Made by a program: the position numbers and the translations under genes
In this document: in pieces, positions 2,590-33,006 of the stretch
How positions within the stretch are numbered: the first letter of the stretch is position 1
Layout of the letters: each line of letters opens with the position of its first letter
Origin: Chitinophagales bacterium
Lineage (GTDB): Bacteria; Bacteroidota; Bacteroidia; Chitinophagales; Chitinophagaceae
Direction of reading: 5' to 3'
Assembly: GCA_044448365.1 (NCBI GenBank)
Contig: JBIOGV010000001.1
Span: forward strand, 1 to 51,880
Length of the DNA stretch: 51,880 nucleotides
The notes under the pieces: model-generated
What the model was told of the DNA's origin: nothing
What the model saw: the letters and a program-made list of their open reading frames with translations, nothing else
Database searches by the model: none

Positions 2590-2668
2590 CTTCTTATTCT
2601 GTATCGCGACTCCAGAAATGTGGCTTCAACGGAATGATGGGTAGGCGAATTCACCGGAGAGATAATAA
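2590..2668 (+). repeat. mnmE-core repeat, A-type (core TTCTGTATCG at 2597-2606; upstream L module degenerate)
   Basis: Aligns with 4743-4812, 11088-11160 and 27358-27420. Confidence 0.7.
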
Positions 2669-2732
2669 ATTTCATCTGGAAGTTTTTGATCACACGTAAA
2701 GAGTATGCACAAAGTACCCTCAATGACCCTGT

Positions 2733-2795
2733 TCAGCTTTTTGGCGCAGCTTGACATTTACCGTTGAGCAACAGAATAAATTTTTATCTTTAGTA
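2733..2795 (+). repeat. Module P (CAGCTTTT...TTGACATTTACC...TTTTTATCTTTAGT), copy 1
   Basis: Shared with 4488-4548. It sits ~100 nt upstream of the S41 peptidase start, so it is promoter-like, but this is unproven. Confidence 0.5.
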
Positions 2796-2897
2796 ATAAT
2801 GCTAGGCATTCGCTACCGCGGGCGACGAATAGATGACCCCAATAGCCATCGGGACCCCAACAGCCTGGAGGTTGGGCGTCATGCTTGAACAACCCTA

Positions 2898-4379
2898 ATG
2901 ACGATTATGAACATTCGCAAAATACCATTCACCTTTTTTTTTCTGACATCTGTGATTATTTCACCAGCACAAAATTTCCATAATCTGAATTTTGAACAGA
3001 CTTGCGACACTTCCAAAACAGGCCTTTGTTATTGGGATTTATCATGGGGCAGTAAGGGTGCAGTAAAACAGGATGTAGTTAATGGGATAAGATGCCTGCT
3101 ACTACAGGGAAATAAAACTAATTCTGTCGGATGGACAGAGCAAACATCCATCATTCCAGCTTTCAAAAGTATAAAGATAATTACCATTATTGCAAACATC
3201 AGTTCAGAAAATATTGAAGGCAAGGGTGCAGGTTTTAATATAAATATTTATGATAAGGATGAAAACCTTATTGCTACAAAAGATATGGGAGGTTTTTATT
3301 CCATAGAATGGATACGAGGAACAACATCTTGGAAAAAGTATTTAATTTCCCTTGTATGTCCTATTGATGCAGCGAAAATAAAAATTGGCGCCATACTTTA
3401 TGGTAAAGGGAAAGCCTGGTTTAAAAATTACAAAGTAGTTTTTGCTTCCACAGAAGGAAGAAAAGTTAGTGTTCTTGCAAAAAAATATATTGCTGCCGCA
3501 TGTGACACAATTAGACTTAATTCATTAGTAAGGGATTCAATTAACATTAGCTCCCTTAAAGAAACAGCTCTGAGAATTGCTGGCCCTGCAAAAAAATACA
3601 GCGACTGCTACCTCGCTGTGAGTTATCTTCTGGAATCTTTAAGGCCTTACGGCGATCATCATTCATTTTTTATGAAAGCGGATGAAGTTATGAATTGGAA
3701 AAATGGGGGCTCTGCGGTCAGCAAAATTGAGCTCCCATCTTATAAGGTTATTGAGAACTGTGGTTATATACTTGTTCCCCCTTTCCATGGTGGAAATCAA
3801 AATACAATACTTGCTTATGCTGACAGTTTGCAGCTTGCGCTTAAAAAACTAGATAATATGGGTGTTAAAGGTTGGGTTATTGACCTTCGTTTAAATACTG
3901 GCGGCAATCAAGAGCCCATGATTGCCGGACTTGGTCCTTTATTTAGTGGAGAAATGCTTGGTTCATTAGTAGACTTAAATGGAAAAGCACATACATGGAA
4001 TTATAAAAATGGGAAATATTATGGGAATGATTTTGAAGGTTGGAATGTTTCAAACCCCACAATTTTGACATCAAAATTACCTATAGCCGTTTTGACAAGT
4101 GGTCAGACAGGTAGCTCAGGTGAAGTAGTAACAATCTCTTTTATCGGTAATGATAAAACAAAATCATTTGGACAACCAACCTGGGGATTGACAACTGGTA
4201 ACGGGAGTTTTGACTTAGCAGACGGTGCCAAAATGTTTTTGGCTTCAACTATAATGGCAGACAGAAATGGTAAGCAATATACCAGTAGCATAGTGCCCGA
4301 TGTGCAGTTTGATAATATGATTGTTGATAATGTAGATGTGGTATTAATGAAAGCAATAGAATGGGTAAAATCACAATAA
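2898..4379 (+). CDS. S41 family peptidase (C-terminal processing peptidase-like), secreted
   Basis: Signal peptide. GWVIDLRLNTGGN and TSGQTGSSGE motifs are typical of the Peptidase_S41 Ser nucleophile region. Confidence 0.75.
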   Translation: MTIMNIRKIPFTFFFLTSVIISPAQNFHNLNFEQTCDTSKTGLCYWDLSWGSKGAVKQDVVNGIRCLLLQGNKTNSVGWTEQTSIIPAFKSIKIITIIANISSENIEGKGAGFNINIYDKDENLIATKDMGGFYSIEWIRGTTSWKKYLISLVCPIDAAKIKIGAILYGKGKAWFKNYKVVFASTEGRKVSVLAKKYIAAACDTIRLNSLVRDSINISSLKETALRIAGPAKKYSDCYLAVSYLLESLRPYGDHHSFFMKADEVMNWKNGGSAVSKIELPSYKVIENCGYILVPPFHGGNQNTILAYADSLQLALKKLDNMGVKGWVIDLRLNTGGNQEPMIAGLGPLFSGEMLGSLVDLNGKAHTWNYKNGKYYGNDFEGWNVSNPTILTSKLPIAVLTSGQTGSSGEVVTISFIGNDKTKSFGQPTWGLTTGNGSFDLADGAKMFLASTIMADRNGKQYTSSIVPDVQFDNMIVDNVDVVLMKAIEWVKSQ

Positions 4380-4487
4380 GAAAAAACCGTGATAATACGA
4401 TTTGTAAAAGCACAAATTTGGGTTTGTGTAAACGGGGGCTGACGGAATCTGTGTTTCGACTTTTTTCAAGCCTGGTCATAACGCTAT

Positions 4488-4548
4488 ACAGCTTTTGTCC
4501 CGACTTGACATTTACCATTTAGCGAAAGAATAATTTTTTATCTTTAGT
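4488..4548 (+). repeat. Module P, copy 2
   Basis: Aligns with 2733-2795. Confidence 0.5.
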
Positions 4549-4812
4549 GTATGTCGTCAAAACAAATTGGACTTTTTGTTAGATACAGCTTTGTGATTAC
4601 AAGCGTAAATTTTAGGTGTATTTCATTCCCGACCAATCACAAAAGACTTAGTGTGTAACCCAAGGTTTTTTCGAGAGTTTACATTAATACTTTAATTCTG
4701 CCATTAATTTCTCTAAACACGGATAAGTACTCGATGAATACATTCTGTATCGTGGCTCCAGAAATGTGACTTGGAGGGAATGATGAAAGGGTGAGATCAC
4801 CGGAGAAATAAC
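4549..4812 (+). repeat. X-L-core-A composite repeat, copy 1 (core TTCTGTATCG at 4743-4752)
   Basis: About 265 bp colinear with 10893-11168, roughly 85-90% identical by eye. It contains a conserved 10-bp stem (TTTGTGATT...AATCACAAAA). Confidence 0.9.
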
Positions 4813-5250
4813 ATCACGAACACAAAGCCCTTCAGCTTTTCTTTCCGGGCTGGCGTTTATCTCATAGGCAATAACTCAGCCTGCCCGGTGTAATCATTGC
4901 AAGAAATCATTTTAGTAAAGTGATCCTGCTATTAGTTTCTAGTCAATGAAATAATTTTCATTGTCTTTTTTTGTCTCCCCTAAAACTTGCAAAGAGGCGT
5001 CCGAAAGACCTACCTTTAATTTCAAATGGAATAGGGTACCGGAAAAAATTTATTCATCAGCATTATCCTGTTACTGGCTTTGCTATTAATAGCTCTGGTG
5101 ATTTGGATTTATGCTACGAGAATAAAAAATATTGAAAAAGAACTTTAGGCCGGTTACCTTCATAGAAATTCCACCGGGATTTTCGGGAATTGTTTGAGGA
5201 GGAATGGTACCATAACCTGTTTTCTTTTTTTAATAAAAAATATTTTCCTG

Positions 5251-8200: not shown

Positions 8201-10776
8201 TGGCTTTGGAAAGCGCCCGCCGGTTTGATGAAACCAAATTATTATTGACAGAAACCGCAAAAGGCAAGAAAAATGTTGAATTGCTGAGTGATATAGGAAA
8301 AAAAATAACTGCTTCCCTCGATTATGAAACGATTTTTTATGAACTATATGGACACATTAATCAATTGGTTGACGCAAGCATTTTTGGCGTAGGTATTTAT
8401 CATGCTGAGCGGCAGCAAATAGAATATAGTTTTGCAATAGAAAATGGAAGGAGGTATCAACCTTATACAAGGGATACTTCAGACAAGAACCAGTTACCTG
8501 TGTGGTGCATTGAAAACCGGATGCCAATATTATTAAATGATGTGCCTAATGAATATAGCCGTTATATAAACAGTTATGAGACTACAGAAAGACTTTTGGA
8601 AGATGGTTCAGTTTCACTACCTCCTTTATCAATTATATATATTCCATTGATTGTAAAAGATAAGGTTCTAGGGATTATTTCAATTCAGAGTTTCCGGAAG
8701 AATGCATACACCGAATATCATCTCAATCTTCTGCAAAACCTTGCTACATATACAAGCATAGCGCTGGATAATGCCAGTGCTTATCGCCAACTGAACAAAC
8801 GTGAACAGGAAATAGCGCAGCGAGCTACAGAGCTTTCTACGGTGAATACTATCAGCAAGGCCCTCGCCTCTCAATTAGATACCGATGTGTTGATAAAAAT
8901 GGTTGGCGACCATTTGAAAGATTTATTTAAAGCCAACCTTGTTTACCTCGCATTATTAAATCAAAAAACCAAAATCATTCATTTCCTTTATCAGTATGGT
9001 GATAAAATGCGACCCATAAAATTAGGAGAAGGGCTTACTTCTAAAATTATATTGAATGGAGAGCCTCTTCTTATTAATAAAGACTTACCCAAGCATAGGG
9101 CACAGTTGGGAGTTGAAAGGATCGGACTAGCAGCCACTTCCTACCTGGGTGTTCCAATTCCGGTAGGTGGTGAAAATATTGGTGTACTGAGTGTACAAAG
9201 CACGGAGAAGGAGAACCGGTTTAACGAAAATGACCTGCGGCTCTTATCTACCATTGCATCATCAGTCGGAGTTGCTTTGAGGAATGCAACACTTTTTGAA
9301 GATGTGAAGCTCGCTAAAATGGAAGCCGAAGCAGCCAGCAAAGCAGCAGAAAAAGCCAATGAAGCAAAAAGTGCTTTTCTTTCTACTGTAAGCCATGAAC
9401 TTAGAACTCCGCTTACTTCTGTGCTTGGGTTTGCCAAAATCATTAAGAAAAGACTGGAAGAAAAACTATTTCCACTTATTGATCACTCGGATCCAAAGAC
9501 AGAAAAAACCATTCAGCAGGTATCTGAAAATCTCAATGTAGTAGTTTCGGAAGGTGAACGCCTGACGCACCTTATCAATGATGTGCTGGACCTTGCCAAG
9601 ATAGAAGCCGGTAAAATGGAATGGAACATGGAACCGATTCCTATGCCTGAAATCGTCGAAAGGGCAATTGCTGCTACTTCTTCTCTCTTTGAACAAAAGC
9701 GTCTTACACTGAAAAGGGAAATCGAAAATGACCTGCCTGTGATTACCGGCGACCGTGATAAACTGATCCAGGTAGTAGTAAATCTTTTATCAAACGCTGT
9801 GAAATTTACTGACTCAGGATCCATTATCTGCCGTGTTTTTCAAAAAGACAATGAAGTTATTGTTGGTATTATGGATACAGGCATTGGCATAGCCCCCAAG
9901 GATCATGCGACTGTATTCGAACAATTTAAACAAGTGGGTGATACATTAATCGACAAACCAAAAGGGACCGGTTTAGGCTTACCGATTTGCAAAGAGATTG
10001 TTGAGCACCAAGGTGGTCACATTTGGCTGGAAAGTGAATTGGGCAAAGGGAGTACTTTCTTTTTTGCATTGCCAGTGAACAAGACAGAGGTCATCAAGCC
10101 CATAAATCTGGATGAACTGGTGAAACAGTTAAAAGAGCAAATGGCCCGGTCTCAATTGAATATGAAAGAACAGGGAATCACCATTCTCGTTGTGGATGAT
10201 GAGGAATCTATTCGTTCATTGCTTCGTCAGGAACTTAGTGATGCGGGATATAATGTTGAAGAAGCAGGCAATGGTAAAGAAGCGTTAGGCAGAATCCGGG
10301 CAAATAAACCTGATCTGATTATCCTTGATGTGATGATGCCTGAGATGAATGGTTTTGAAGTTGCCAGCATTTTGAAAAACGATCCTCAAACGATGGATAT
10401 CCCAATCATTATTTTATCTATTGTGCAGGATAAGGCAAGGGGCTTTCGCATAGGGGTTGACCGCTATCTTACAAAACCTATTGATAGTGCCGAACTATTC
10501 GCTGAAGTGGGCACTTTGCTTGAACAAGGCAAGTCTAAGAAGAAGGTAATGATCGTGGATGAGGACAGTGCTGCCGTTAGATCACTGACTGAAGTGTTGG
10601 AAACAAAGGGGTATAATGTGGTGGAATCGGACGGAAAAGAACTGATGAAGAAGGCTATTTCAACACTTCCTGATATCATCATTCTTAATTCTCTGTTTTC
10701 CGAAAAGCAGCAGATAGTACAGTCTCTCCGTTTCGAAAAGGGGTTGGAAAATGTATTGTTTTTGATTTATCAATAA
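5251..10776 (+). CDS. Hybrid sensor histidine kinase: Reg_prop beta-propeller repeats, Y_Y_Y, TM, multiple GAF, HisKA, HATPase_c, receiver, plus truncated pseudo-receiver
   Basis: The ATG at 5251 gives a signal-like N-terminus (the track ORF starts at the TTG at 5194). Motifs include YQTWLEGFEKNWS...YHFHVRA (Y_Y_Y), SHELRTPL (H-box), GTGLGLPICK (G2) and DLIILDVMMP (receiver Asp). Confidence 0.85.
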   Translation: MKGASRFTSYSHLAFQVGCFMYFFFLSPLVSNGQPQSEKGLPFITNYAAKTFNALPQTWSVQQDENGIMYFGVQNYILEYDGIRWRKLTFQNNSSTNICRSMTMAENGVIYYGGFGDLGYLGNDSLGQKRTNSLLRLVPPEYRNFLDVWSAYSTESGVYFQSREYIIRYDDSKHEPGEKRMMKVWIPKTKFMYAFYLDGNYFVHQQGLGLFKMVNDSLVLIPGSEFLGKERMQIMLPYPSATGEKQYLIGLFYSGLYLYDGKTFRRFITQADPIFRSGINLYKGLQLKNGSYVLSTTGKGLVIIDAQGIIQQKINRDVGLQDETIYATFIDKRGSLWLGLDNGISRVEIASPVTKFGSQSGINSGVLSINRFGGDLYIGISNGLLVFNNKTAHFERVPGMLGNQVFQMLQVGNELIIPADGLFGVRNMKAHAIRASVSADLTLNGVYHSKKYPNVLLCAGNFGVAVFEKKSEPSSSNGSGTWHFTGYIPGIKDQLWTLAENSDGTIWAGTQVGRSYLIRLAFDAKDSIDLKNTKFEIYGPGNGYKNGLGNVFSIKGSNYFPGDSALYTFDDKQKKFRIDSTFGIFKKGGGFTEFDMDEDARGRVWIRLGKELRLAVPRPEGGYFIDTTEMREINDFTIQKIYPEKTGIVWICTTDGLMRYDEKLRKENDPSFKTLLRFVSAGKSELNTAISQDEKLVSVSFKKRTLRFEYAAPFFEQEEKTLYQTWLEGFEKNWSDFDYNYYKEYTNLPAGKYHFHVRAKNVYEKLSEEAVYSFSIRPPWYASGWAYLLYILTALAIVYTIIRWRTRQLHEKHRELEKIVAERTVQLSLRLDELAVINSVQGGLVREMDIQGIYELVGEKIREIFHAQIFDIVTYDSKTNLLEDHYSYENGDRTLVGKWEPSGFRKIVIDTQQVLLINKDLDKRSQEINNKVISGEQPKSALFVPLISGGHVTGMISLQDLDRENAFPESSVNLLTTLANSMSVALESARRFDETKLLLTETAKGKKNVELLSDIGKKITASLDYETIFYELYGHINQLVDASIFGVGIYHAERQQIEYSFAIENGRRYQPYTRDTSDKNQLPVWCIENRMPILLNDVPNEYSRYINSYETTERLLEDGSVSLPPLSIIYIPLIVKDKVLGIISIQSFRKNAYTEYHLNLLQNLATYTSIALDNASAYRQLNKREQEIAQRATELSTVNTISKALASQLDTDVLIKMVGDHLKDLFKANLVYLALLNQKTKIIHFLYQYGDKMRPIKLGEGLTSKIILNGEPLLINKDLPKHRAQLGVERIGLAATSYLGVPIPVGGENIGVLSVQSTEKENRFNENDLRLLSTIASSVGVALRNATLFEDVKLAKMEAEAASKAAEKANEAKSAFLSTVSHELRTPLTSVLGFAKIIKKRLEEKLFPLIDHSDPKTEKTIQQVSENLNVVVSEGERLTHLINDVLDLAKIEAGKMEWNMEPIPMPEIVERAIAATSSLFEQKRLTLKREIENDLPVITGDRDKLIQVVVNLLSNAVKFTDSGSIICRVFQKDNEVIVGIMDTGIGIAPKDHATVFEQFKQVGDTLIDKPKGTGLGLPICKEIVEHQGGHIWLESELGKGSTFFFALPVNKTEVIKPINLDELVKQLKEQMARSQLNMKEQGITILVVDDEESIRSLLRQELSDAGYNVEEAGNGKEALGRIRANKPDLIILDVMMPEMNGFEVASILKNDPQTMDIPIIILSIVQDKARGFRIGVDRYLTKPIDSAELFAEVGTLLEQGKSKKKVMIVDEDSAAVRSLTEVLETKGYNVVESDGKELMKKAISTLPDIIILNSLFSEKQQIVQSLRFEKGLENVLFLIYQ

Positions 10777-10892
10777 ACTTGAAAATGGGAGATAAAATAT
10801 GAATGAAAATAATTTTTAAATAGTTGAATGGGTTAATCTAAACATCAGAATTTGAAAAAATAAAATGGAACAAAAATTATTAATTGTTGATT

Positions 10893-11168
10893 GTATGTGG
10901 TCAAAACAAATTGGACTTTTTGTTAGAGACAGTTTTGTGATTGCAAGTGTAAATTTTAGGTGCATTTCATTCCCGACTAATCACAAAAGACTTAGTGTGT
11001 GACCTAAGGATTTTTCGAGAGTGCACATTAATACTTTAATTCTGCCATTAATTTTGCTAAAACACCGATAAATACTCGATCAATACATTCTGTATCGCAG
11101 CTCCAGAAATGTAGCGTTGACGGAATGATGAGGGGGTGAGATCATCGGGGAGAAAAGGAGAAATTAAT
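10893..11168 (+). repeat. X-L-core-A composite repeat, copy 2 (core at 11088-11097; ends with GGAGAAATTAAT)
   Basis: Colinear with 4549-4812. Confidence 0.9.
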
Positions 11169-11366
11169 ACTTATGAAACCTGGATTTAATGATCGCAAGA
11201 TAAAGATTGAAGGTGGATTAAAGCGGCTCGAATTGTATTGTTAAATTACTTCTTGTTGTATATACATTTTGCCCTTACGTCGCAAAATATAGCGAAGGTG
11301 ATCTTTAATCAATAATATTGTGTTTCCGGCAATATTGCCAAGTTTCAATCAAACATCATCCATCAA

Positions 11367-12377
11367 ATGAAAAAATATTTCATGCTTTCTGCGTTTCTGT
11401 TGATAGGAGCACTGGCTTCCAATGCCCAAAAACAATCAGCTTATCATATAAGCGGCGTATATCCTATCCTAAGCGGGGGAGGGTACGATTACCTTACAGT
11501 TGACAGTGCCTCCGATAATTTATATATTTCGCATGGATCTCAGGTGAATGTGCTAAATAAAAACACCGGCGATTCTCTTGGTGTTATTAAAACCGAGAAG
11601 GATGTACATGGCATAGCGCTGGTACACGCTTTAGGCAAGGGTTATATTTCTAATGGAACACTCAATAAAGTGTTGGTGTTTGACCTAAAATCCAATAAGG
11701 TACTTGGCTACGTGCCAACAGGAAAATTTGCCGACGGCATTTTTTATGATGATTTCTCCAAAAAAGTAATTAGTTGTAACGGCATGAGCAAGAACATGAC
11801 AGTAATTGATCCTTCTACGGATACAGTATTTGCTACTGTTCAATTAACCGGCTGGCCTGAGACTGCTGTAAGTGACGGTAAAGGAAACATATATGTGAAC
11901 AATGCAGAGAAAGCTGAAATGGATGTAGTAGATGCCACTACCTTTAAAGTCATTCATCAGTGGCCCAACGAGCCTGGTAAAGGTGCATCAGGGCTGGCAA
12001 TTGATCGGGAAACAATGCGTTTGTTTGCAGGTTGCGAGAATAAATTGATGATTGTGATGAATGCAACCAACGGTAATGTAATAGCCAGTTTGCCAATCGG
12101 CGATGAGTGCGACGGAGTGGGCTTTGATAACCAACGGAAGATTGCCTTTTCTGCAAATGGTGATGGCACGCTGACTGTTGTGAAAGAGCAATCTGCAGGT
12201 AGCTTTGTTGTAGCTGAAAATGTACAAACCAAACAAGGTGCACGCACCATTGCTGTTGACCAAAAAACGCACAAGGTTTACCTGCCTTCTGCAATGTTTA
12301 AACCTGCTTCAAAAAAATCTTTTCGCCCGGAAATTATACCTGGCACCTTTAAAATTTTAGCAGTAGAAAGAAATTGA
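11367..12377 (+). CDS. Secreted YVTN/YncE-like beta-propeller repeat protein
   Basis: Signal peptide and repeated blade-like segments. It resembles the YncE/YVTN family, and a paralogue-like gene lies at 28863-29912. Confidence 0.65.
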   Translation: MKKYFMLSAFLLIGALASNAQKQSAYHISGVYPILSGGGYDYLTVDSASDNLYISHGSQVNVLNKNTGDSLGVIKTEKDVHGIALVHALGKGYISNGTLNKVLVFDLKSNKVLGYVPTGKFADGIFYDDFSKKVISCNGMSKNMTVIDPSTDTVFATVQLTGWPETAVSDGKGNIYVNNAEKAEMDVVDATTFKVIHQWPNEPGKGASGLAIDRETMRLFAGCENKLMIVMNATNGNVIASLPIGDECDGVGFDNQRKIAFSANGDGTLTVVKEQSAGSFVVAENVQTKQGARTIAVDQKTHKVYLPSAMFKPASKKSFRPEIIPGTFKILAVERN

Positions 12378-12531
12378 TTATAAGTTATCTCACTATGGTG
12401 GCGCAATGGTAACCTTCGTTATCTGAAACAAAGTTTATTGGAAAGATTGAAGGGCTTTTTGATAATACCACGACAAAAAAATCTGTCAGCCGGATGTAAT
12501 TGAATCAAGAAATTATTTTAGTACAGTAATT

Positions 12532-13005
12532 CTGCCATTAATTTTTCTAAAACACTTAGAAATAGTCGAAAAGTACATTTTGTATCGGAAAGTAACTGCA
12601 TCACGTCAGATGCAGATTCTACGCAGTTTCTGCATGTTCTCTGCAAGTTGTATTTGCTTTTCTTTGTTTTTATTTGCCTTTAGTAGCATTTTTTTGGGTA
12701 GAAAAGTGGTCATTAGTTTAAAACTAATGGCTACTTTCCCATCGTGAAGAGGAGAGATTATAGCACACAATGATAGGGTATGATACATAATGATACAATA
12801 GTTATCAGTTGAAAATCCAATTTAGAACCAAAAAACCACGCTATGAGTAGTAATTTAAGAGTAACTAAAATATGTGAGTACTGCAGCCAGGAATTTATTG
12901 CAAAAACTATTCAATCGAAATATTGTTCGCATAGCTGCAATAACAAAACCTATAAGGAAGCCAAGCGCAAAGAAAAGGTTGAATCAGTAGTCAGTAAAAC
13001 TAATC
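12532..13005 (+). repeat. L module fused through the core (TTTTGTATCGG, 12578-12588) to copy 2 of the ~430-bp mnmE-trailer repeat
   Basis: 12578-13005 aligns with 352-782. 12532-12577 aligns with the L modules at 4698, 11042, 18572 and 24008. Confidence 0.85.
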
Positions 13006-13025
13006 AGGCCAATCGTCAGCAATAA
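12843..13025 (+). pseudogene. Truncated paralogue of the Zn-ribbon/HTH gene (60 codons, HTH part missing)
   Basis: MSSNLRVTKICEYCSQEFIAKTIQSKYCSHSCNNKTYKEAKRK aligns with the 618-923 product, then diverges and stops. Confidence 0.6.
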
Positions 13026-13087
13026 GTCCGCCAAGGCCGATGCAATCATTATAAGCCATTATTTATTCATCTATTGGTACATTATTT

Positions 13088-13190
13088 TTGCTATTAATTT
13101 CGCTAAAACCCTGAGAAATACCCGATGAGTACATTCTTTATCCTTTATCAGAAAGTAACTGCATCGCAAACAATGCAGATTCTATGCAGT
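13088..13190 (+). repeat. L-core-trailer repeat, short copy (internal CTTTATC duplication, stop at 13156-13158, hairpin at 13159-13178)
   Basis: Aligns with 12532-12640 and with 352-400. Confidence 0.75.
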
Positions 13191-13420
13191 TGTTAGGGTG
13201 GCTGTTTATAATAATAAAATCTTTTGATGAACACCAACAACGGCGTAAGTCAACAAAACTTGCAGTAAAATAAATCTGTGTGATTTTATGGTTTTTTGTT
13301 CCGGCACCCTACTTTTGTCGCAACTGTCCGTGTCAGTTGCTATCATGGAGTTAGCAGCTCATAAAAAGATATTTCGCTAAAATTTTGTTTCCTGGTGAAT
13401 GTACTTTTATGTTCTAAAAA

Positions 13421-14389
13421 ATGATTGTGATGAACAAATATTTTCTTATTGGATTAATATTCCTTGCAGCGTGTCATCAAAGATCATCGTCCGTTCCCGT
13501 TGTTGGTTTTGCGGATGCCTTTCAGGATAATACAATCGAACAGGCAAAGATTGGTTTTATGGATGCACTAAAAAAGAACGGATTCGATGAAAAAGACGGG
13601 GCCATAAAAATAATTTATAGGAACGCCCAGGGAAATATCCCTACCCTTACCCAGATCATGAATTATTTTATTAGTGAAAAGGTAACGCTGATCGCAGCCA
13701 ATGCTTCCTTAACCGCAATAACCGCAGTTCAGAAAACAAAAACGATCCCTATTTTCATGATGGTGGCTCCCACTCCTTCTCTAATGAAAGTGCTGGATGA
13801 TAAAGGCGCTCCTCCGGCGAATCTGTTTGGTGTGAGCGATAACCTGGATTATATTGATACTTCATTCTTGCTGATACCTAAAATCATCAAACCAAAATCA
13901 GGGAAACTAACGGTTGGGATGATATTTAATCAGTCAGAGCCGCAATCTGTTGAAGCCATCGACAGGATAGAAGAACTGGCAAAGAAAAATGATATCAATC
14001 TTGTTTCCCTTCCGGTGAACAGTTCCGCTGATGTGCAACTGGTAACTTCTGCACTTCTAAATAAAAACATTGATGCTTTTTTTGCTAACCCTGATAATGT
14101 TGTCTTTTCATCTTTTGAATCTATCGACAAATTGTGTAAGCAGGCTAAGGTCCCGATATTCACCAGTGAGGCAGGGCTTGTTTCGAGAGGCGCACTGGTT
14201 GCTTTCGGGGCAGACATCTATCAATGGGGTTACCAGGCCGGCGAGCAAGCCGCTCAATACCTTAAATCAAAAGACACGACAGGGATTCATTGGGAAATGG
14301 TAAAAATCAGAAAAAGAGTTTTTAATCCTGTAGTCGCAAAATATTATGATTTAACAATACCTTCCGATTTTCAACCCATAACCCCATAA
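13421..14389 (+). CDS. ABC transporter substrate-binding lipoprotein (ABC_sub_bind/PF04392-like)
   Basis: Lipobox LAAC (alternative ATG at 13430). The fold signature resembles the uncharacterised ABC_sub_bind family. Its stop overlaps the permease ATG (TAATG). Confidence 0.7.
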   Translation: MIVMNKYFLIGLIFLAACHQRSSSVPVVGFADAFQDNTIEQAKIGFMDALKKNGFDEKDGAIKIIYRNAQGNIPTLTQIMNYFISEKVTLIAANASLTAITAVQKTKTIPIFMMVAPTPSLMKVLDDKGAPPANLFGVSDNLDYIDTSFLLIPKIIKPKSGKLTVGMIFNQSEPQSVEAIDRIEELAKKNDINLVSLPVNSSADVQLVTSALLNKNIDAFFANPDNVVFSSFESIDKLCKQAKVPIFTSEAGLVSRGALVAFGADIYQWGYQAGEQAAQYLKSKDTTGIHWEMVKIRKRVFNPVVAKYYDLTIPSDFQPITP

Positions 14390-16010: not shown

Positions 16011-16165
16011 ATCCGCAACAATTGCTTAAAGCACTCCTCGTCTTTACAGGAATTACAACGGTCAAAACTAAATACCAAAAATTTTAAAGTTTTACATTTT
16101 ACACTTTAATCATCAGGTGATCATTGAATGATTATTAATATTTAACTTTCATAATAAATGCTCCG

Positions 16166-17416: not shown

Positions 17417-17582
17417 AGGATTTAATTTTTCTTTGCAATTTGGCTTTATATCCGGGTTGACGTTATTGTATTTGGTTAAAAGAAAATCATCCTTTTGTTA
17501 GATGCATACATGTTACTAAAAATCTGTCTTTACCTTTATTTGCTGATGTTTGCTTTTGAAGCCATAAATCGCACTACTATTC

Positions 17583-17772
17583 TTGTTACTAATTTCGCCA
17601 GAACCCTTATTAATAGCGGGTCGGTAAATTCTGTATCGGAAAATGATTTAATGATGAGTACCAGAGTGATTTTATCATGTGGGAGAGATTCATGAATAAA
17701 GCGACGAGTCCCTTTTAGCATTTTTAAGACCATTGCCTCATGCAGTTAGGAGGAGACTCGTCGGGGAAGAAA
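17583..17772 (+). repeat. L-core-B repeat (core at 17629-17639, reads TTC TGT ATC GGA AAA TGA)
   Basis: Aligns with 18572-18763 and 24008-24194. Its 3' end lies 3 nt from the stop of the convergent gene at 17776. Confidence 0.85.
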
Positions 17773-17775
17773 TCC

Positions 17776-18345
17776 TTATTTTTTCATCGGAGGCGGCGGT
17801 GGTGGCGCCGTCAGTTTTTGCTCAAATTCACTCCAGGACCTGACCTTATTATTTTTGATCTGAAAGTAAGCATGCCCACGGACTGAATCTACTTTGCCTT
17901 TCATGTCAGTTTCATATTCACGGTACCAAACCAGAACAAAATCCTCTTTTGCATCATTGGCATGCACGGGCATCCATCCGTCAAACGTTAACTTCACAGA
18001 TGCTAATGTTTTCCTGAACTGCTTGGCAAAGTTTATCATGCTGTCTGCGGTGTTGTCTCTGAATTTATTGCCGTCAGGAAAATCAATGCTTACTGAATCG
18101 GCCAACAGGGATTTAAAATCATCCACCTTACCATCTTCCCACATTTTGTATAGATCCAGCACCATTTTGGCGTGGTTGGCTTCACCCATGCTGAAATCAG
18201 AAGAATAGGCAGCCTTGTATGGATAGGTTATCGACGCAGATTCTTTTTTCTCTTCCGTTTTGCCGGAGGTTTCATCGGTCTTTTTGTCGTTATTGCAGGC
18301 AAACAAGACTGAAGCTGCAAACAATGCAATTGATAATCGTTTCAT
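17776..18345 (-). CDS. NTF2/SnoaL-like lipoprotein with C-terminal poly-Pro tail
   Basis: Lipobox LFAC. The size and pattern fit a SnoaL-like fold (weak call). The protein ends PPPPPPMKK. Confidence 0.55.
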   Translation of the reverse strand: MKRLSIALFAASVLFACNNDKKTDETSGKTEEKKESASITYPYKAAYSSDFSMGEANHAKMVLDLYKMWEDGKVDDFKSLLADSVSIDFPDGNKFRDNTADSMINFAKQFRKTLASVKLTFDGWMPVHANDAKEDFVLVWYREYETDMKGKVDSVRGHAYFQIKNNKVRSWSEFEQKLTAPPPPPPMKK

Positions 18346-18571
18346 GTTTAAAAAATGTTTTAGTTAAGAAATATGTGTGATCGAAAATAGAATCTGGATT
18401 AAAAGAAATGTTTTCAATTAGAAATTTCAGGGTAGTAAGAGCGACTAAAGTAAGAAAGATTATCCATTCCCCGTTGTGATTAGTGTTCTATAAAATAAAA
18501 ATGATCGAATGCTGTCAGGACACTGTATCGTCTGTGGCTACGGATCAATCCCCATATTATTTTTGACAGTA

Positions 18572-18763
18572 ATCCTGCTATTAATTTCTCCAAAACACTG
18601 ATAAATACTCGATCAGTACATTCTGTATCGGAAAATGATTTAATGATGAACAACAGAGTGATTTTATCACGCGGGAGAGATGCATGAATAAAGCGAGGAG
18701 CCTCTCTTAGTTTTCTTGATATCACTTTTAACGCAGTTAGGAGGAGACCCGTCGTGGAAGAAA
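18572..18763 (+). repeat. L-core-B repeat (core at 18621-18631)
   Basis: Aligns with 17583-17772. Its 3' end is flush with the stop codon of the convergent kinase gene (18764-18766). Confidence 0.85.
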
Positions 18764-21700
18764 TTATACTGATACCGGCAAATGAACCACAAACTCAGTA
18801 AATTCTTCTTCCCGGGTGTTTACCTTTATTTCTCCGCCATGTGCTTTTACAATATCATAGCTCAGGCTCAAACCCAATCCTGTTCCTTGTCCTGTTGGTT
18901 TGGTAGTGAAAAAGGGTTGGAAGATTTTATCCAATACTTTTTGAGGAATGCCGGGTCCATTATCTCTGACACTTATTAAAACTTTATCAGCAACTTTCTT
19001 TGTGCTTACCAAAACTGTAGGTTCATATCCTGAAATATTTTGTTTATGCTTTTCGTTCACGGCATAAAATGCATTGTTGAATAAATTTATAAAGACACGG
19101 ACGATTTCCTGTTGCATAAGCGGGAACTTATTAATGCTTTCATCAAAATCCGTTTTAAGATTAGCCTGGAAAGATTTGTCTTTTGCACGAAGACCGTGGT
19201 AACTTAATCTTAAGCATTCGTCTGCAATTGCATTGATATTCACAAGTTCTTTCTGACCGGTGCCTGACCGTGAATGTTGCAGCATTCCTTTTACAATCGC
19301 ATCGGCACGTTTGCCGTGATGATTTATTTTTTCTTCATTATCTATTACGTCATTTACAATAGCATCCACTACATTCATGTTTCCCTTCTTAATTTCATCT
19401 TTCATTTCAACCAATAATTCTTTATTCACTTCTGAAAAATTATTGACAAAGTTTAACGGGTTTTGTATCTCATGCGCAATGCCTGCAGTGAGTTCTCCGA
19501 GAGATGCCATTTTTTCGGATTGAATAAGTTGGGATTGTGTGGACTTTAAATCTTCAAAAGATTGTTTCAACTCAGCCGTTCTTTCGTCAACAATTTTTCC
19601 CAGTTTTTCTTTTTCATTTCTTAGATTTTTTTCCCTCCATTTACTGAAAACCCGCAATGCAAATAAAAAAAGCAAGACATAAACCAGGTAGGCCCACCAT
19701 GTGCGATACCAGGGTGGCAAGACAACAAAACTATATTTAATGGGATCGCTCCAAACGCCCGATGGGCTTAGCGCTCTTACATCAAACTGATATGTGCCTT
19801 CATAAATATTTCCAAACGCAGCAGAGGTAATGTTGGCCGGGGTACTCCAATTTTTGTCGTAACCTTCCATTTTGTATTGGTATTGTACGAGCGAAGGCTT
19901 TGCAGGTTCAATGGCTGCAAATTCAATGGTTATATTATTGTGGCTGTAGGGTAATATCAAATTTTGAGGAACCGGGTAAAACCTGCTTATTGCGTCAAAT
20001 TCAATTCCCTTATACTTTGCCCGCATATCTTCGCGTTGTGCAACATTTAAGGGTTTGCCAAAAGTAGTTACCTCTTCTGTTACAGAAGCCGGTGTGACAG
20101 CGCTGTCAGATTTCAATTTTGATTTATAAGTATTGTTTTTAGTGTTCACTAAATCATTCCAGCAAATCGCCTCATTATCTACCTTTATGGCTAATATATT
20201 TAATTCGGGAGGAGTATTATTTTTATTTAACGATGTATAATCAAACCGCATCAAACCACTTTTTTCAGAGCCAGTTGCAATCCATAACATTCCTTTACTG
20301 TCTAAAAATATAGCATGTTGCCCCCTGTTTACATCCTTAACCGGGTAACCGGTTTTTGAATTATATTTTTCAAAAACAGGAGTATAATTTTGCAAATCCG
20401 CGTTACTTAAACTATTCTGTGGCGGATAGTTATTCTCATCAGCTTTATTGTTTGAATTATTTGTTGAGGTGGTTGTAACAGGCTTATACCCGGTGAGTAT
20501 GGCCACGCCGTTATTAGTTCCAATCACAATATTTCCTTCATGTGTTAATGCAACCTGGGTAACTACATTGTCAGGAAGCCCCTGCCCGGTTGTATAGGTC
20601 AAAACCGATTTGCCGTCATACCTGTTTAACCCGCCACCCTGGGTGCCCATCCAAATATTTCCATCATTATCCTTTATGAGCGACCTGATATAATTACCTC
20701 CTTCCGCATGGGATAAACGATAGTTGGTAAAAGACTTTCCATCAAAATGGCTAAGCCCGCGGTCAGTACCTATCCAAAAATCACCAGGTTTGTCTTCTGC
20801 AATTGCCGAAATGTAGTCACCTGCCAATCCCTGCTTTATAGTGTAGGTGGTAAAAGTTTTTCCATCGAATTTACTCAGCCCGTTCCGTGTTCCAATCCAA
20901 AGATTACCTTCACTGTCCTGCAAAATATTCTTTACTGAGTTATCGGGCAACCCATTCAAATCGGTATAAAAAGTAAAATATTTTCCGTCAAATTTTATCA
21001 ATCCATCATACTCGCAGCCCATCCAGATATTACCGGTTTTGTCCTGAAACAGCGACCAGAATGAAATGTTAAGTTTATAGTTGGTGAAGTATTCGCCATC
21101 AAATCTGGTCATTAATCCCCCGTACCCGGCGAACCAAAGATCTCCCTTTTTATCTTCAAAAATGCTCCTGATACGATTGTAGGTTAGTCTTTGAAATGAT
21201 GGCCCGGAATAGCTGAATATTCCGTTTGCTGCTGAGCTAAACCATAAATTTCCATCTTTATCTTCACAAATGCTGTGTATCTCGCCCATTATAACTCCAT
21301 TCGAATTATTTATATGGGAAAATGTCTTTCCATTATAATAAAGTATTTCCCCCCTTCCTGAGCTTAAACAAATGTTGCCAAAATGATCTTCATATACAAA
21401 AGGAACAATTTGCTCATCAGCAGGGTAGGTGATGATATCGGCACCATTATATTTAATGTAACCCATTTTGGTACCGGCCCAGGTATTTCCACTGTTATCT
21501 GTACAAATCGTATGAACCTCCTGATTGCTTAAAGCAATGTTAGTAAACGCTTTTCCGTCGTATTTACAAAGACCATTTTCTGTGCCGATCCATATTATCC
21601 CTTTTTTATCTTCCTTTATTTCGTATACATTATTTCCCGGAAGCCCATCTGATTTTGAATAGGTACTGATTGAGTCGCCTGCATATTTATAAAGACCATA

Positions 21701-22333: not shown

Positions 22334-22441
22334 GGGAAAACAATATAAGGTGTCTTAGCCCCTTAATATCTGGTCTAAGTTTGAAATTTAATTTAGGCAC
22401 TTTAATTTAGGATTATGTCAAGGCAAAGACGCAAGTTTTCT

Positions 22442-23698: not shown

Positions 23699-24007
23699 AT
23701 TTAAGAATTCATTGAGCAATCCAAACGCAATTTTAATTATTCCGGGTGTTAATTTAATACTCTCACGCCGTATCCATATTCTAAAACTAAGTGGTGAGGT
23801 GTTCATCTGAAAGCAATCTTCTGTAAAATCAAATACTGCTCCATTAGAATATCTTTAATTATAAACAGATTTGTAAAATCTGTTAAGATTTTATGACTGC
23901 AAGATATTTACCCGGCTAACAAATTAAATCACAAATTTTTTTTGTCTTTTGATATTAACGCTATCAATCACCCCTCATTCTTCGAATGTAGTCTTATCGT
24001 ACATTAG

Positions 24008-24194
24008 TTGGCCATTAATTTCTCTAAAATCCTGATAAATACCAGGGAAATACTTTTTGTACCGGGAAGTGAATTAATAATGAACAACAGAGTGATTGTA
24101 TCATATGGAGCTGTTTGAATAAAGCGATGAGCTTCTTTAGTTTTTCTAAGAAGACTTCTCATTCCGTTGGAGGAGACTCGTTGGAGAAGAAATA
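24008..24194 (+). repeat. L-core-B repeat, more diverged (core reads TTT TGT ACC GGG AAG TGA at 24055-24072)
   Basis: Aligns with 17583-17772 and 18572-18763. Confidence 0.8.
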
Positions 24195-24342
24195 GTAAAT
24201 AAAAGTTTGCGCCAGTCCCCAAAGCAAAAACAACGTAATCACACAACCTTTCTGATCCAAAAACATTATATACTTTTGTTCAGGTCCACTTAACTGGTGA
24301 CCTTTTATTCCTTTTTTTCCTCTTCACATAAATGTTAATTGC

Positions 24343-26412
24343 ATGAAACCTGGTATTGTCGTTTTACTTATTGTCATTTGTGGGTTTACTGTCGATGCAC
24401 AACAAAAATTTACCCCGCCCGCAACAAAATCCATCCCTGTTGTGGATACTTTACACGGAGTTTTAATTACCGATGATTACCGGTGGCTGGAAGATAAGAC
24501 TGACCCGAATGTGGTTGAATGGACAAAAACCCAGCACGATTATGGAATTGAATATCTGAATGCAACACAAAAAACCCATCCGGGTTTGCGGGAAGATATT
24601 GCGGCTTTTATTGACCTTGATTATGAAGGCCCGCTGCAGAAGGAAGGTAAAAGGGTATTTCAGACCATTAAGAAAAAAGGTGATAAACAAAATAAATTAT
24701 ACACGATTATTAATAGTAAAAAAATATTGATCTGGGATCCAGTGCAACTGGATACTTCAGGCAGCACTTCCACCAACAGTGTTGCTTACACTTATGATGG
24801 TGAACGTGCAGCAGTCAGTGTTCAAAAAAGCGGGGCTGAAATTTCCACCACTTATATTATTGATACAAGGACAGGAAAAATTCTTTACCCGCCTTTGAAA
24901 AACACTTTTGACTATCAATGGACAAAAGATCAGCAACATGCTTATTTTACTTTGCGCAGCCAGGATGATGTAAACAAACAATTGCCACTGAAAACGTACT
25001 GGTGGAGAATAGGTGACCCTGCTGATAAGGCGGTATTCACAGGCACAACAACAGATGCTAAAAACAGCTATTATATTTATGATAACCGTTACAGCGACGT
25101 AAGTTTTTCGGGTGAATCCGACTTTTATTCCAATAACTGTTACATGCGCAAAACAGGCACTCAGGATAAAGGTGAATTGATTTATGAAAGTAAAAAATCA
25201 AATGCTTATCCCGAAGCTATTGGTGACAAATTGTACATTTTTACGAATGATAATGCGCCTAATTACAAATTGATGGTGGCTGATGAAAATAATGCAGAGT
25301 ACAAAAACTGGAAAGTATTAATACCCGAGAGTGAAACAGTGATGCAGAGTGATGTGATAACCAAAAACAATATCATCATCCAGGATAAAAAAGATATTCA
25401 AAGCAGGTTGACATTATATGGCCTGGATGGAAAAAGAATAAATCAGATTGAATTACCCGAAACAGGAAATGTTTCAGGTATCAGGTACGACAGGGAGGAA
25501 GATTCTGTTTATATCACACTTAACACTTTCACTTCAACATCAAAAACGTTTGTGGCCTCTCCTTCCAATTTTAAATGGCGTTTGTATTATCAGCGCAATT
25601 TGCCTGTTGATATGAGCAATATTGCCGGGGAAATTAAATTTTATATATCCAAAGACAGCACAAGGGTCCCGGTATTTGTTGTTCATCGCAAAGACATGAA
25701 ACTTGATGATAATAACCCTGTTTTATTAACTGCTTACGGAGGTTTTAATATTGGTATCGAGCCGGATTATTTCGGGTTTTATGCACCTTTGATCAACCGG
25801 GGAGTAATTGTGGTGGAAGCAGGAATTCGCGGGGGAGATGAGTATGGGGAAAAATGGCACCAGGGCGGAATGTTAGCGAACAAACAAAATTGTTTTGATG
25901 ATTTCAATAGTTGCACTGAATGGCTTATCAGAGAAAAATATACCAACCCATCAAAGATAGTAGCTCTCGGGGGCAGCAATGGTGGGTTGTTGATGGGAGC
26001 CATTGCTACTCAAAGACCCGATTTATATAAAGCAATCGTTTGTGAAGTTCCTTTGCTCGATATGTTGCGGTATCAGAAATTTTTAATCGCACGTTACTGG
26101 ATCCCTGAATATGGTTCGTCGGAAAATGATGCAGATTTCCGGTGGTTGCTTCGTTATTCTCCGTATCAAAATATCAGGAAGGGAATAAACATGCCCACCA
26201 TGCTGGTAACTGCAGGGGCAAACGACAGTCGTGTTGACCCGATGAATGCAAAAAAATTTGTTGCAGCCGCACAGAATAATGAAGGACAAATAAATCCTGT
26301 TATTCTGCACATAGATTACAATAGCGGGCATGGAAGCGGACAAAGCACAAAGCAAATTATTGACAACTGGAATTTCATTTTTGAATTTATCACCAATCAA
26401 TTAGGAATATAA
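24343..26412 (+). CDS. Prolyl oligopeptidase (S9A family serine peptidase)
   Basis: N-terminal DDYRWLED motif, catalytic GGSNGGLL, C-terminal D and H region, and a signal peptide. Confidence 0.9.
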   Translation: MKPGIVVLLIVICGFTVDAQQKFTPPATKSIPVVDTLHGVLITDDYRWLEDKTDPNVVEWTKTQHDYGIEYLNATQKTHPGLREDIAAFIDLDYEGPLQKEGKRVFQTIKKKGDKQNKLYTIINSKKILIWDPVQLDTSGSTSTNSVAYTYDGERAAVSVQKSGAEISTTYIIDTRTGKILYPPLKNTFDYQWTKDQQHAYFTLRSQDDVNKQLPLKTYWWRIGDPADKAVFTGTTTDAKNSYYIYDNRYSDVSFSGESDFYSNNCYMRKTGTQDKGELIYESKKSNAYPEAIGDKLYIFTNDNAPNYKLMVADENNAEYKNWKVLIPESETVMQSDVITKNNIIIQDKKDIQSRLTLYGLDGKRINQIELPETGNVSGIRYDREEDSVYITLNTFTSTSKTFVASPSNFKWRLYYQRNLPVDMSNIAGEIKFYISKDSTRVPVFVVHRKDMKLDDNNPVLLTAYGGFNIGIEPDYFGFYAPLINRGVIVVEAGIRGGDEYGEKWHQGGMLANKQNCFDDFNSCTEWLIREKYTNPSKIVALGGSNGGLLMGAIATQRPDLYKAIVCEVPLLDMLRYQKFLIARYWIPEYGSSENDADFRWLLRYSPYQNIRKGINMPTMLVTAGANDSRVDPMNAKKFVAAAQNNEGQINPVILHIDYNSGHGSGQSTKQIIDNWNFIFEFITNQLGI

Positions 26413-26590
26413 CTGATCGCTAACACGCATTTTGTGTCGCAATATGCCAGTAGGATTTTAATGGTGCTTTCAAATTAATCTATGAATTGGTCAGCAGGAA
26501 CCTGTTTATGAGTTTGTGAATGGGATGTCTTCAAATTTTTCAATTGTTGACACAAGACGCATGGCCCGTCTATTTTTTATTGGATTTATA

Positions 26591-26782
26591 TTACTGGTAA
26601 ATTTTGACAGGAATAAAGTCATCTGGTTTTTTCACAATCTTGTTACTGAAAATCTCTGTATTAGCTTTTAGCTGCTGATGATTCCTTTTGTTCTCCCGGG
26701 TTTTGTCACCAGGATATAACCAGGATCCATGAAACTCTTCGTTTTTTAATTCCTGTAAAAATCCATTAACTTCATAGTGCAT
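26591..26782 (-). CDS. Hypothetical small protein
   Basis: An isolated 63-codon ORF divergent from 26832. No family recognised. Confidence 0.25.
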   Translation of the reverse strand: MHYEVNGFLQELKNEEFHGSWLYPGDKTRENKRNHQQLKANTEIFSNKIVKKPDDFIPVKIYQ

Positions 26783-26831
26783 TCTAAAACACTTCTTTAT
26801 TTTTTATTTCTTCACTTCTAAATTCAACGAT

Positions 26832-27212
26832 ATGAGAAAGAGTTTTATCAAACAAATTTCAGGCATTGCAGTTCTTGGAATTTTCTTATTGTCATTGGGA
26901 TCATTCATCAATAAAAATGACGGTACTAAAACCGTAACCGGGGAAATCCTGGATATGAAATGTTATATGGCTTCGGGCGCTCATGGTGCAGATCATAAAG
27001 AATGCGCTGCTACATGCATCAATGGCGGTTCTCCGATGGGCATCCTTTGTGATGATGGTAAAGTTTACCTGTTGATCAAAGACGATAAAAAAGAGGATGC
27101 TTATAATGATGCCAAAAAGTATGCAGGCGAAAACGTTATATTGACCGGCACTGAATCAGTAAAAGGCGGCGTACAGGCATTGATTGTAGCCGAAGTTAAA
27201 ATGAAAAAATAA
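26832..27212 (+). CDS. Hypothetical exported Cys-containing protein
   Basis: ATG start, signal/TM segment, 126 aa. No family recognised. Confidence 0.5.
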   Translation: MRKSFIKQISGIAVLGIFLLSLGSFINKNDGTKTVTGEILDMKCYMASGAHGADHKECAATCINGGSPMGILCDDGKVYLLIKDDKKEDAYNDAKKYAGENVILTGTESVKGGVQALIVAEVKMKK

Positions 27213-27312
27213 ATGCCTTCTTCGCGACGAATCTCCTTCGAATTTTTAGAAATTCTTTTTTAAGAAATTAAGAGGTAGCCGGGACCGGGAAAAATTAATA
27301 AGATCAACAATC

Positions 27313-27420
27313 TTATTATTAATTTCTCTGGAATACTTATAAATGCCCGATGAGAGATTCTGTATCGCCGCTCCCAAAATGTGAGCTAAAAAAATAATTA
27401 CGAGACGACGTCACCTGGAA
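27313..27420 (+). repeat. L-core-A' repeat (core at 27358-27367, reads TTC TGT ATC GCC GCT CCC AAA ATG TGA)
   Basis: Aligns with 4698-4770 and 11042-11115. The 3' part is diverged. Confidence 0.7.

Positions 27421-31992: not shown

Positions 31993-33006
<1,014 letters not shown>

Follow-up and report, generated by a model that had tools for sequence, protein, structure and literature searches.

Probable stacking of integrative elements and of their decayed derivatives at the 3' end of mnmE in Chitinophagaceae

The first 27 kb of a 51,880-nucleotide stretch of DNA from a Chitinophagales bacterium of the family Chitinophagaceae (GenBank assembly GCA_044448365.1, contig JBIOGV010000001.1, positions 1 to 51,880 of the forward strand; hereafter, the window) contain, downstream of the tRNA-modification gene mnmE, an array of short repeats that are interspersed with accessory genes. 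The repeats are built around a 10-bp core, TTCTGTATCG, which is found at the stop of mnmE and at nine further sites within 27 kb, all on the plus strand, and nowhere else as a repeat in the 3.87-Mb assembly (G000 below; completeness 88%). The search pattern TTYTGTAYCG has 10 matches on the plus strand of the window compared to the 0.47 expected, a count that none of 100 shuffled sequences reaches. We present evidence that these repeats are probably attachment (att) sites of a family of integrative elements that insert by tyrosine-integrase recombination, and that the array quite likely grew by site-specific accretion of such elements and of their decayed remnants at the last 18 bp of mnmE.

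A left module of about 70 nt (L), with the consensus ...TAATTCTGCTATTAATTTCTCTAAAACACTGATAAATAC.CGATGAGTACA, precedes every copy of the core except for those in mnmE (position 352) and at 2597, so that 8 copies have L. An nhmmer profile of L plus the core, run against the whole assembly, yields 8 copies, all within the first 27.4 kb of the contig and on one strand; its only match outside the window, a weak one, is on a 5.8-kb contig, C233. The flanks to the right of the cores in the window are of three kinds, M, A and B. The M flank, which also directly follows mnmE, spans 430 bp, with 85% identity between positions 352-780 and 12578-13005; the A flank reads G-NN-GCTCCAGAAATGTGAC...GGAATGATG...GAGATCACCGGAGAAATAA; and the B flank reads GGAAAATGA-TTTAATGATGA...GAGTGATTTTATCA...GGGAGAGATGCA. 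The A and B flanks can be aligned throughout save for an 8-nt segment unique to A. Stretches of L are ATTAATTTCTC and TGATAAATA, and one of the right arm is GGAGAAATAA; a short motif, TTAATTTCTC in L, recurs inverted in the A and B arms as GAGAAATAA and GGGAGAGAT. Self-comparison of the window reveals an additional, degenerate copy at 13134, TTCTTTATC-CTTTATC-AGAAAGTAA. A match at 48482 that had been listed in a preliminary description of the window has neither flanking module and is a chance match.

At core positions 3-9 of the degenerate copy (13134-13160), 7 nt are duplicated exactly in tandem (CTTTATC CTTTATC). Seven nucleotides is the size of the overlap region of tyrosine recombinases; the duplication could be the footprint of an aberrant exchange, and it hints at a 7-bp overlap in this system.

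The units appear to be confined to a single chromosomal position and a narrow group of bacteria. A BLAST search of 60 relatives with one unit retrieves copies from four further species, all in the same genus, and otherwise only two weaker matches outside the genus, with E values of about 0.003-0.005 (here, G002-G008 denote relatives in the genus, and L0xx and L10x denote fetched contigs and loci). In the long contigs of G003 and G008, both uncultured Bacteroidetes metagenome-assembled genomes, the units, four copies in each, are located directly downstream of mnmE, in the same orientation; copies are present also in G006 and G002. On the upstream side of mnmE, the genes of G003 and G008 are in synteny, at 76-95% identity, and the DNA between the repeats has almost nothing in common between the two and nothing in common with that in the window. 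In five other members of the genus, there is no L plus core after mnmE in the downstream DNA covered, which ranges from about 140 bp (G005) to 20 kb (G007). A scan with the exact pattern across 185,579 species, each represented by one genome, found true copies only in G003 and G008, ten other matches being due to chance; the same pattern identified 41 copies in 26 metagenome contigs, many of these from soil and rhizosphere samples of JGI. In the three species, the L-core units always occupy one strand and always follow mnmE.

Comparison of closely related loci reveals breakpoints at the core. Two contigs, L062 and L059, share 99.86% identity over a stretch of 5,550 bp that begins exactly at the core; to the left of the core, L062 has the coding sequence of mnmE and L059 has the L module of an additional cassette. 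The same 400-bp cassette occupies the first position in L062 and an internal one in L059. In G007, mnmE and the core are followed by an M-like flank and a gene for a 135-aa protein, whereas in G003 the order is mnmE-core-M, 8.6 kb with two internal L-core-A units, L-core-M and the same 135-aa gene (98% protein identity). The right flanks of some copies that encode FCIGK-stop, the C-terminus of MnmE, are the native mnmE-downstream sequence of another lineage: L047 and L055 carry the flank of the G008 type, and the M type is common to G000, G003, G007 and L084. A native mnmE-downstream flank after L and the core is the expected appearance of an attR junction, that is, element arm, core and the old chromosomal flank. 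Direct repeats of the core flank inserts in the window (352/12578 and others), G003 (378/8976), L101 (9726/14277) and L102 (895/7272), and all 10 mnmE ends that adjoin arrays or inserts read FCIGK-stop, so that the gene is intact after insertion.

An intact element with its integrase resides at this site in relatives. In two JGI contigs (L102 and L103) and one contig from ENA, mnmE is followed by the core, an M-like flank, an HTH_17 gene and a gene for a 382-aa tyrosine integrase, then by seven more genes, an L-like sequence with TTCTGTATCG (L102 7272), one cassette and the core again (10651). The L102 element is about 6.4 kb long, with no recognisable relaxase among its products. The integrase contains the domains Arm-DNA-bind_5 (PF17293), Phage_int_SAM_5 (PF13102) and Phage_integrase (PF00589), and its predicted arm binding fits the long conserved arms and the inverted short motif in L, A and B. 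The element also encodes a 135-aa protein, which is unrelated to the 135-aa protein of G003, G007 and G008.

The arrays in the window, G003 and G008 lack an integrase and retain only truncated excisionase-like genes. The product of the small gene that sits inside the M flank after mnmE in the window (618-923) matches phrog_66, 'excisionase and transcriptional regulator' (E = 1.8e-5), but is shorter than its relatives (101 aa versus 120-125 aa) and ends within the HTH_17 domain. The relative in L084, a protein of 125 aa that is 38% identical to it, consists of a Zn-ribbon followed by a complete HTH_17, and PF12728 is present in homologues of this protein. The window gene reads as C-terminally truncated and is plausibly a remnant of an integrative element; a second copy persists as a 60-codon remnant inside the other M flank (12843-13022). 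Moreover, L059 contains a broken remnant (pseudogene) of an L102-type integrase just upstream of an L-core junction. Scans with PF00589 detect no recombinase genes in the arrays of G000, G003 and G008, and none of the four recombinases of the genome has a tblastn match in any array locus, including the 26 metagenome loci. The best matches to the L102 integrase in ten genomes of the genus are only 25-35% identical, and in the absence of a close relative there, the arrays in the window, G003 and G008 appear to be orphaned. A 432-aa integrase on contig C137 was considered as an array-linked enzyme and rejected because it shows no orthologue pattern across the genus; the only tyrosine recombinases common to all the genomes are Xer. 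Upstream of the excisionase-like gene in both M flanks (544-570 and 12770-12796) are three ATGATAC heptamers with 10-bp phasing that probably serve the element as an operator or arm-type site.

Table 1. Features of the mnmE-proximal array in the window
Feature	Positions	Strand	Evidence
3' part of mnmE; the contig begins within the gene, product ends FCIGK-stop	1-369	+	PF12631 MnmE_helical, E = 7.9e-25; 70-76% identical to MnmE of genus relatives
attL-type junction, last 18 bp of mnmE (TTCTGTATCGGAAAGTAA) = 10-bp core + Gly-Lys-stop	352-369	+	same 18-mer class as att of MGIVchHai6 and SGI1 (PMC4958241, PMC2297512)
M-type right flank, continuing into the excisionase-like gene	370-617	+	similar to 12578-13005; homologous flank after mnmE in G003, G007, L084 and L102
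Excisionase-family gene (Zn-ribbon + HTH_17), 101 aa	618-923	+	phrog_66 match; homologue adjacent to the integrase gene in L102
Core + A-type right module, without L	2597-2665	+	self-comparison
L + core (4743) + A-type right module, attP-like internal junction	4680-4812	+	nhmmer E = 2e-17; alignment, inverted repeat
L + core (11088) + A-type right module	11024-11156	+	self-comparison, profile, inverted repeat
L + core (12578, FCIGK-TAA) + second M flank with excisionase-like remnant	12512-13022	+	self-comparison, profile
L + degenerate core (13134, 7-nt duplication) + short M flank	13069-13191	+	self-comparison, profile
L + core (17629, FCIGK-TGA) + B-type right module	17563-17695	+	self-comparison, profile
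L + core (18621, FCIGK-TGA) + B-type right module	18560-18690	+	self-comparison, profile
L + core (24055, FCTGK-TGA) + B-type right module	23991-24120	+	self-comparison, profile
L + core (27358) + diverged A module, last copy found in the window	27294-27384	+	self-comparison, profile

The cargo between the repeats consists of ordinary accessory genes on both strands, including those for an S41 peptidase, a 1,860-aa hybrid sensor kinase, a beta-propeller protein, an ABC transporter operon, a SnoaL-like protein, a second sensor kinase, a prolyl oligopeptidase and proteins with type IX secretion sorting domains. Most of the cassettes are 0.4-6 kb long and encompass one to four ordinary genes, and none in the window encodes a recombinase.

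Several sequences related to parts of the array lie in or near it or elsewhere. An independent repeat of about 85 nt (TGAATAAAGCGA...TTTAG.TTT...AGGAGGAGAC.TCGT.G.GAAGAAA), which lies outside the att site proper, forms the 3' half of the B module at 17690-17773, 18684-18764 and 24110-24193 and, beyond the array and without the core or L, also occurs at 34249-34332, 35899-35990 and 37404-37492. A lone A-type right arm (AAGAAATGTGACTTCGACGGAATGAG...GAATTCACCGGTGAG), also without the core or L, is found on contig C6 of the same assembly (32400-32446; L100 2390-2450). The match on C233 (L099), on the minus strand at about 722, is an M-type junction with a degenerate L, TTTTGTATCG and GGA ATG TGA (FCIGM-stop), followed by phased GATAC-containing repeats that resemble the ATGATAC heptamers of the window; this junction could represent either a variant from another strain or one more part of the array. 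A module of about 70 nt, 80-90% identical between its copies, is located inside two cassettes of the window (2723-2794 and 4478-4548) and in L084 (5179-5226), shortly downstream of an A arm or upstream of L. Finally, in a cultured organism with a closed genome, Flavisolibacter tropicus (CP011390; L101), an integrase-less 4.5-kb insert follows mnmE (9726-14294). The insert is bounded by the 18-bp direct repeats TTCTGCATCGGAAAGTAA (9726) and TTCTGTATTGGAAAGTAA (14277) and contains genes for an HTH_17 protein, a 677-aa protein, a 319-aa protein and a RadC fragment.

These observations suggest the following scenario. The circular form of an element would carry an attP site in which the 10-bp core is flanked by a left arm (L) and by a right arm of the M, A or B version. 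Recombination would occur within the core, given that this is the sole block common to all copies, and would be catalyzed by a tyrosine integrase that, in the lineage of this genome, may have resembled the L102 enzyme. Each new insertion would push the earlier junction downstream, so that the array would come to read mnmE-core-arm ... L-core-arm ... L-core-(former mnmE end with its downstream DNA), with the presumed order of insertion running from the distal to the proximal units. Most of the elements would then have lost their integrase and excisionase genes, leaving cargo 'cassettes' between att sites, that is, remnants similar to cis-mobilizable elements (CIMEs).

Under this scenario, the copies that encode FCIGK-stop (G-type) are expected to look like coding sequence because the bases to the right of the core are either a former mnmE end or are needed to complete mnmE beside the element. 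The preliminary description, whose codons are correct at all nine positions that it listed, had noted that these copies resemble the coding end of mnmE, and a larger sample bears this out. Among 19 distinct indel-free internal copies from three genomes and the 26 metagenome contigs, there are 28 minority alleles, 25 of which occupy the seven positions, out of 18, where a synonymous change is possible. Recurrent variation is confined to positions 3, 9, 12, 15, 17 and 18, that is, codon third positions and positions 2 and 3 of the stop codon (hypergeometric p = 3.8e-4); for positions 11-18 alone, considered separately because positions 1-10 are partly fixed by the search pattern, p = 1/70. All three stop codons, TAA, TGA and TAG, occur and TGG never does. 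The conservation ends at the stop codon, beyond which there are at least nine unrelated right flanks, with native mnmE flanks behind some of the copies. Ten genuine 3' ends of mnmE vary in the same way (TTY, TGY, ATY, GGN, AAR and TAA/TGA/TAG). GGN-AAR-stop is retained in 17 of 23 G-type copies, and the six broken ones comprise two with a 1-nt insertion, one with a 1-nt deletion, one with the 7-nt duplication and two that have lost the stop (GAG, TTA). By these patterns, the FCIGK-stop blocks are present or former working ends of mnmE that are slowly decaying. Part of their coding signal is inherited from real genes, and selection on the internal copies is not required to account for it. The proposal that the repeats once served as alternative 3' ends of mnmE is supported for these copies and is not supported for the A-type copies, which show no codon pattern.

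The A-type copies, read as FCIxAPEM, had also been taken to evolve as coding sequence under purifying selection. In 19 distinct copies, the minority counts across codons 5-8 are 10, 7 and 5 at codon positions 1, 2 and 3, respectively, which does not support this interpretation; there are 16 peptide versions, and 4 of the 19 copies have TGG in place of the stop. The fourth codon, in which variation had been ascribed chiefly to the third base, consists of a G and two unconstrained bases: at the second base, 10 of the 19 copies have C, 7 have T and 2 have A, and the original impression was a small-sample effect. None of the 120 nearest MnmE cluster representatives ends in FCIAAPEM, all of them ending in FC(I/V)G(K/E), and none of the mnmE ends in the contigs is joined to an A arm. 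In L062, where an A-like arm does adjoin mnmE, GGAAAGTAGGAC replaces GNNGCTCCAGAA, so that the sequence reads Gly-Lys-stop. The A motif, CAGAAATGTG, is an inverted repeat of TACATTCTG, a segment that covers the junction between L and the core; nine base pairs persist in 9-10 of the 10 sequences, and compensatory changes are absent, as is typical of half-sites for protein binding. The motif is therefore most likely DNA bound by the recombinase (a half-site) rather than a peptide, conserved as the inverted counterpart of the left half-site.

Upstream of the core, the mnmE frame is broken by stops in several copies, as was noticed originally. L lacks 3-base periodicity and hence is not a gene fragment: although the minus strand (...DTECIDRVFISVLEKL...) appears protein-like in a few copies, there is no periodicity in any phase across 41 copies (p = 0.5-0.76). 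Compared by eye, L is about 55-60% identical to the mnmE coding region upstream of the core, which is not convincing for a decayed copy.

Several observations weigh against accretion and decay as the complete explanation. Most cassettes, in the window and in the arrays of relatives, show no trace of mobility genes, and the cargo-only cassettes may never have had any of their own. No cognate integrase was found in G000, which is 88% complete, or in nine other genomes of the genus, including G003, which is 100% complete. Copy 2597 lacks L, and the G003/G007 boundary at the G003 copy 9825 is not crisp. Three of the approximately eight mismatches between L059 and L062 fall within the first 18 nt (L059 4296-4313, L062 2097-2114), which places this particular crossover at or beyond the stop codon, not inside the 10-bp core, unless these mismatches represent strain polymorphism. 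Neither an excision product nor an empty site within one population was directly observed. The three mismatches in question, TGT/TGC, AAA/AAG and TAA/TAG, are all synonymous, and the 18-mer seems to differ in origin from the cassette that follows it.

A first alternative is that the mnmE end of Chitinophagaceae is an integron-like chromosomal platform for gene capture, with double-stranded, arm-bearing att sites. Here the units would not be decayed whole elements; being integrase-less, each with its own attP-like L-core-arm site, they would be inserted, excised and shuffled at mnmE or at existing junctions by an integrase supplied in trans by a visiting element. More than 40 cassettes of 0.4-6 kb are devoid of mobility genes, homology links the A and B arms, both of which contain inverted-repeat partners of L, the 400-bp cassette is first in L062 and internal in L059, and the failure to find A arms adjoining mnmE would fit insertion at internal junctions. 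However, the remnants of excisionase-like and integrase genes in the arrays show that at least some units are decayed elements, no integrase lies beside the array or is conserved across the array-bearing genomes, and a circular cassette was not observed. We regard this possibility as tentative; it overlaps with accretion of decaying elements and does not exclude it. If true, soil Bacteroidota would have a cassette-exchange system of their own, convergent with integrons.

A very unlikely alternative is a dispersed repeat (a terminator, a small RNA or a sequence akin to repetitive extragenic palindromes or miniature inverted-repeat transposable elements) that overlaps the mnmE stop by chance, or else an array produced by duplication and homologous recombination. 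Core-less recurrences of part of the B module (34.2, 35.9 and 37.4 kb) and the lone A module on C6 are compatible with such a repeat, but L plus the core is present at no other locus of the genome, being restricted in three species to one strand and to the position after mnmE, and there is neither an Rfam match nor a stable fold. The segments between the repeats are mutually unrelated and hence are not duplications, and the breakpoint between near-identical strains is at the core.

The units are also imperfect palindromes with terminal inverted repeats (TTAATTTCTC ... GAGAAATAA) that separate cassettes in one orientation, which raises the prospect of single-stranded, attC-like sites, that is, of a true integron or a cluster of attC sites without an integrase (CALIN). 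This reading is largely refuted, and we give it hardly any weight. Single-stranded DNA folding of six units gives z-scores of -0.92 to +0.38, no better than for shuffled sequences, the consensus fold reaches only -9.4 kcal/mol with compensatory pairs at 2 of 23, no Rfam family matches, the genes are on both strands and some cassettes are multigenic. The integrase linked to the site in relatives is of the arm-binding Bacteroidota type, with no IntI feature seen, although no search was aimed at IntI; no IntI-type integrase beside an attI site was encountered, there being no tyrosine recombinase near any array and no PF00589 domain upstream of mnmE in G003 and G008. In F. tropicus, the genes upstream of mnmE encode Proton_antipo, MacB/FtsX, MotA/ExbB-ExbD and TonB proteins. 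The notion that the internal copies are silent alternative 3' ends switched onto mnmE, under present-day coding selection, draws on the retention of GGN-AAR-stop with synonymous variation in the G-type copies but is the least credible of all, given that every intact copy encodes FCIGK so that switching would change nothing, that six G-type copies are broken by indels or stop loss, that the sole different 'peptide', the A-type, has no coding signature and was never found on MnmE, and that the synonymous variation follows the spectrum of real mnmE ends, from which it is inherited.

In our assessment, the array probably originated by accretion of integrative elements and of their remnants. The arrays mark a hypervariable locus in uncultured Chitinophagaceae of soil and rhizosphere, where sensor kinases, peptidases, transporters and secreted proteins are swapped between strains. 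Two more general lessons concern the interpretation of repeats from sequence alone: a coding-like substitution pattern can be inherited from the target gene, and a 'peptide plus stop' that is conserved may just as well be a half-site for a recombinase. Events of this type are known; their occurrence in soil Chitinophagaceae is new, and the array is exceptionally long. In the searchable literature, we found no description of an mnmE array in Bacteroidota.

Within the same phylum, the Bacteroides element NBU1 inserts in the 3' end of a tRNA-Leu gene and employs an IntDOT/NBU1-type integrase. The element family described here resembles it in having a tyrosine integrase with N-terminal arm-binding and SAM-like domains, an HTH_17 excisionase-family partner and, as a target, the 3' terminus of a conserved gene, where there is a short segment of identity. 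The target gene is different, however, and the L102 element, at only about 6.4 kb, has no recognisable relaxase. To our knowledge, multi-cassette arrays have not been described for NBU elements.

With integrons and CALINs, the arrays share the ordered arrangement of unrelated cassettes in one orientation, separated by a conserved recombination site, and, as judged from L062 and L059, the proximal position appears to be the site of gain, as in integrons. In contrast to integrons, the sites do not fold as attC hairpins, there is no IntI, the insertion point is the 3' end of a protein-coding gene, and the cassettes contain genes on both strands, some of them whole operons.

The accretion of elements at one site and their decay to CIMEs, which retain att sites but no integrase, form a recognized scheme (PMC5704250). 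As in CIMEs and the islands related to ICESt1 and ICESt3 (refs 79-80 in PMC5704250), integration here is into the 3' end of a conserved gene, and decay to integrase-less, att-bounded segments is combined with further integration at the same site, resulting in composite islands. The arrays contain att-bounded segments without integration genes and remnants of xis-like and int genes, and relatives harbor an intact element at the same site; by analogy, the segments might be mobilized in cis. The difference lies in the number and size of the stacked units, which are far more numerous (at least nine att sites in 27 kb) and much smaller than in CIMEs.

The closest parallel with respect to the target is found in Gammaproteobacteria. 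SGI1 integrates in the last 18 bp of thdF (synonymous with trmE and mnmE) and forms tandem arrays with internal attP sites (PMC2297512), and the att sites of MGIVchHai6 at trmE are attL TTCTGTATTGGGAAGTAA and attR TTCTGTATTGGCAAGTAA (PMC4958241). Both islands use the same target as the elements described here, the last 18 bp that encode FCIGK-stop; the attL of MGIVchHai6 differs from the 18-mer of the window at two positions, both synonymous, and TTCTGTATTGGCAAGTAA differs only at synonymous sites. In all these cases, the insert lies between imperfect 18-bp direct repeats, and tandem arrays with internal attP sites are common to SGI1 and the present elements. The arrangement of int and xis beside the trmE junction recurs in L102, L103 and the ENA contig but not in the window, G003 or G008. 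Unlike SGI1 and MGIVchHai6, the latter reside in Bacteroidota, in soil Chitinophagaceae; judging by domain architecture, their linked integrase (Arm-DNA-bind_5 and SAM_5) is of the Bacteroidota type; and the genome from which the window comes has no integrase. Furthermore, in contrast to SGI1, they possess long conserved arms (L of about 70 nt), and their arrays consist of up to about 10 different small cargo segments, not of copies of a single 40-kb island. Given that a family of elements from a distant phylum uses the site of SGI1 and MGIVchHai6, and that its linked integrase has an architecture typical of Bacteroidota, the near-invariant sequence encoding FCIGK-stop appears to be a convergent target. 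SGI1 and MGIVchHai6 are resistance islands, and the same 18-base landing site is now seen in a second, distant phylum.

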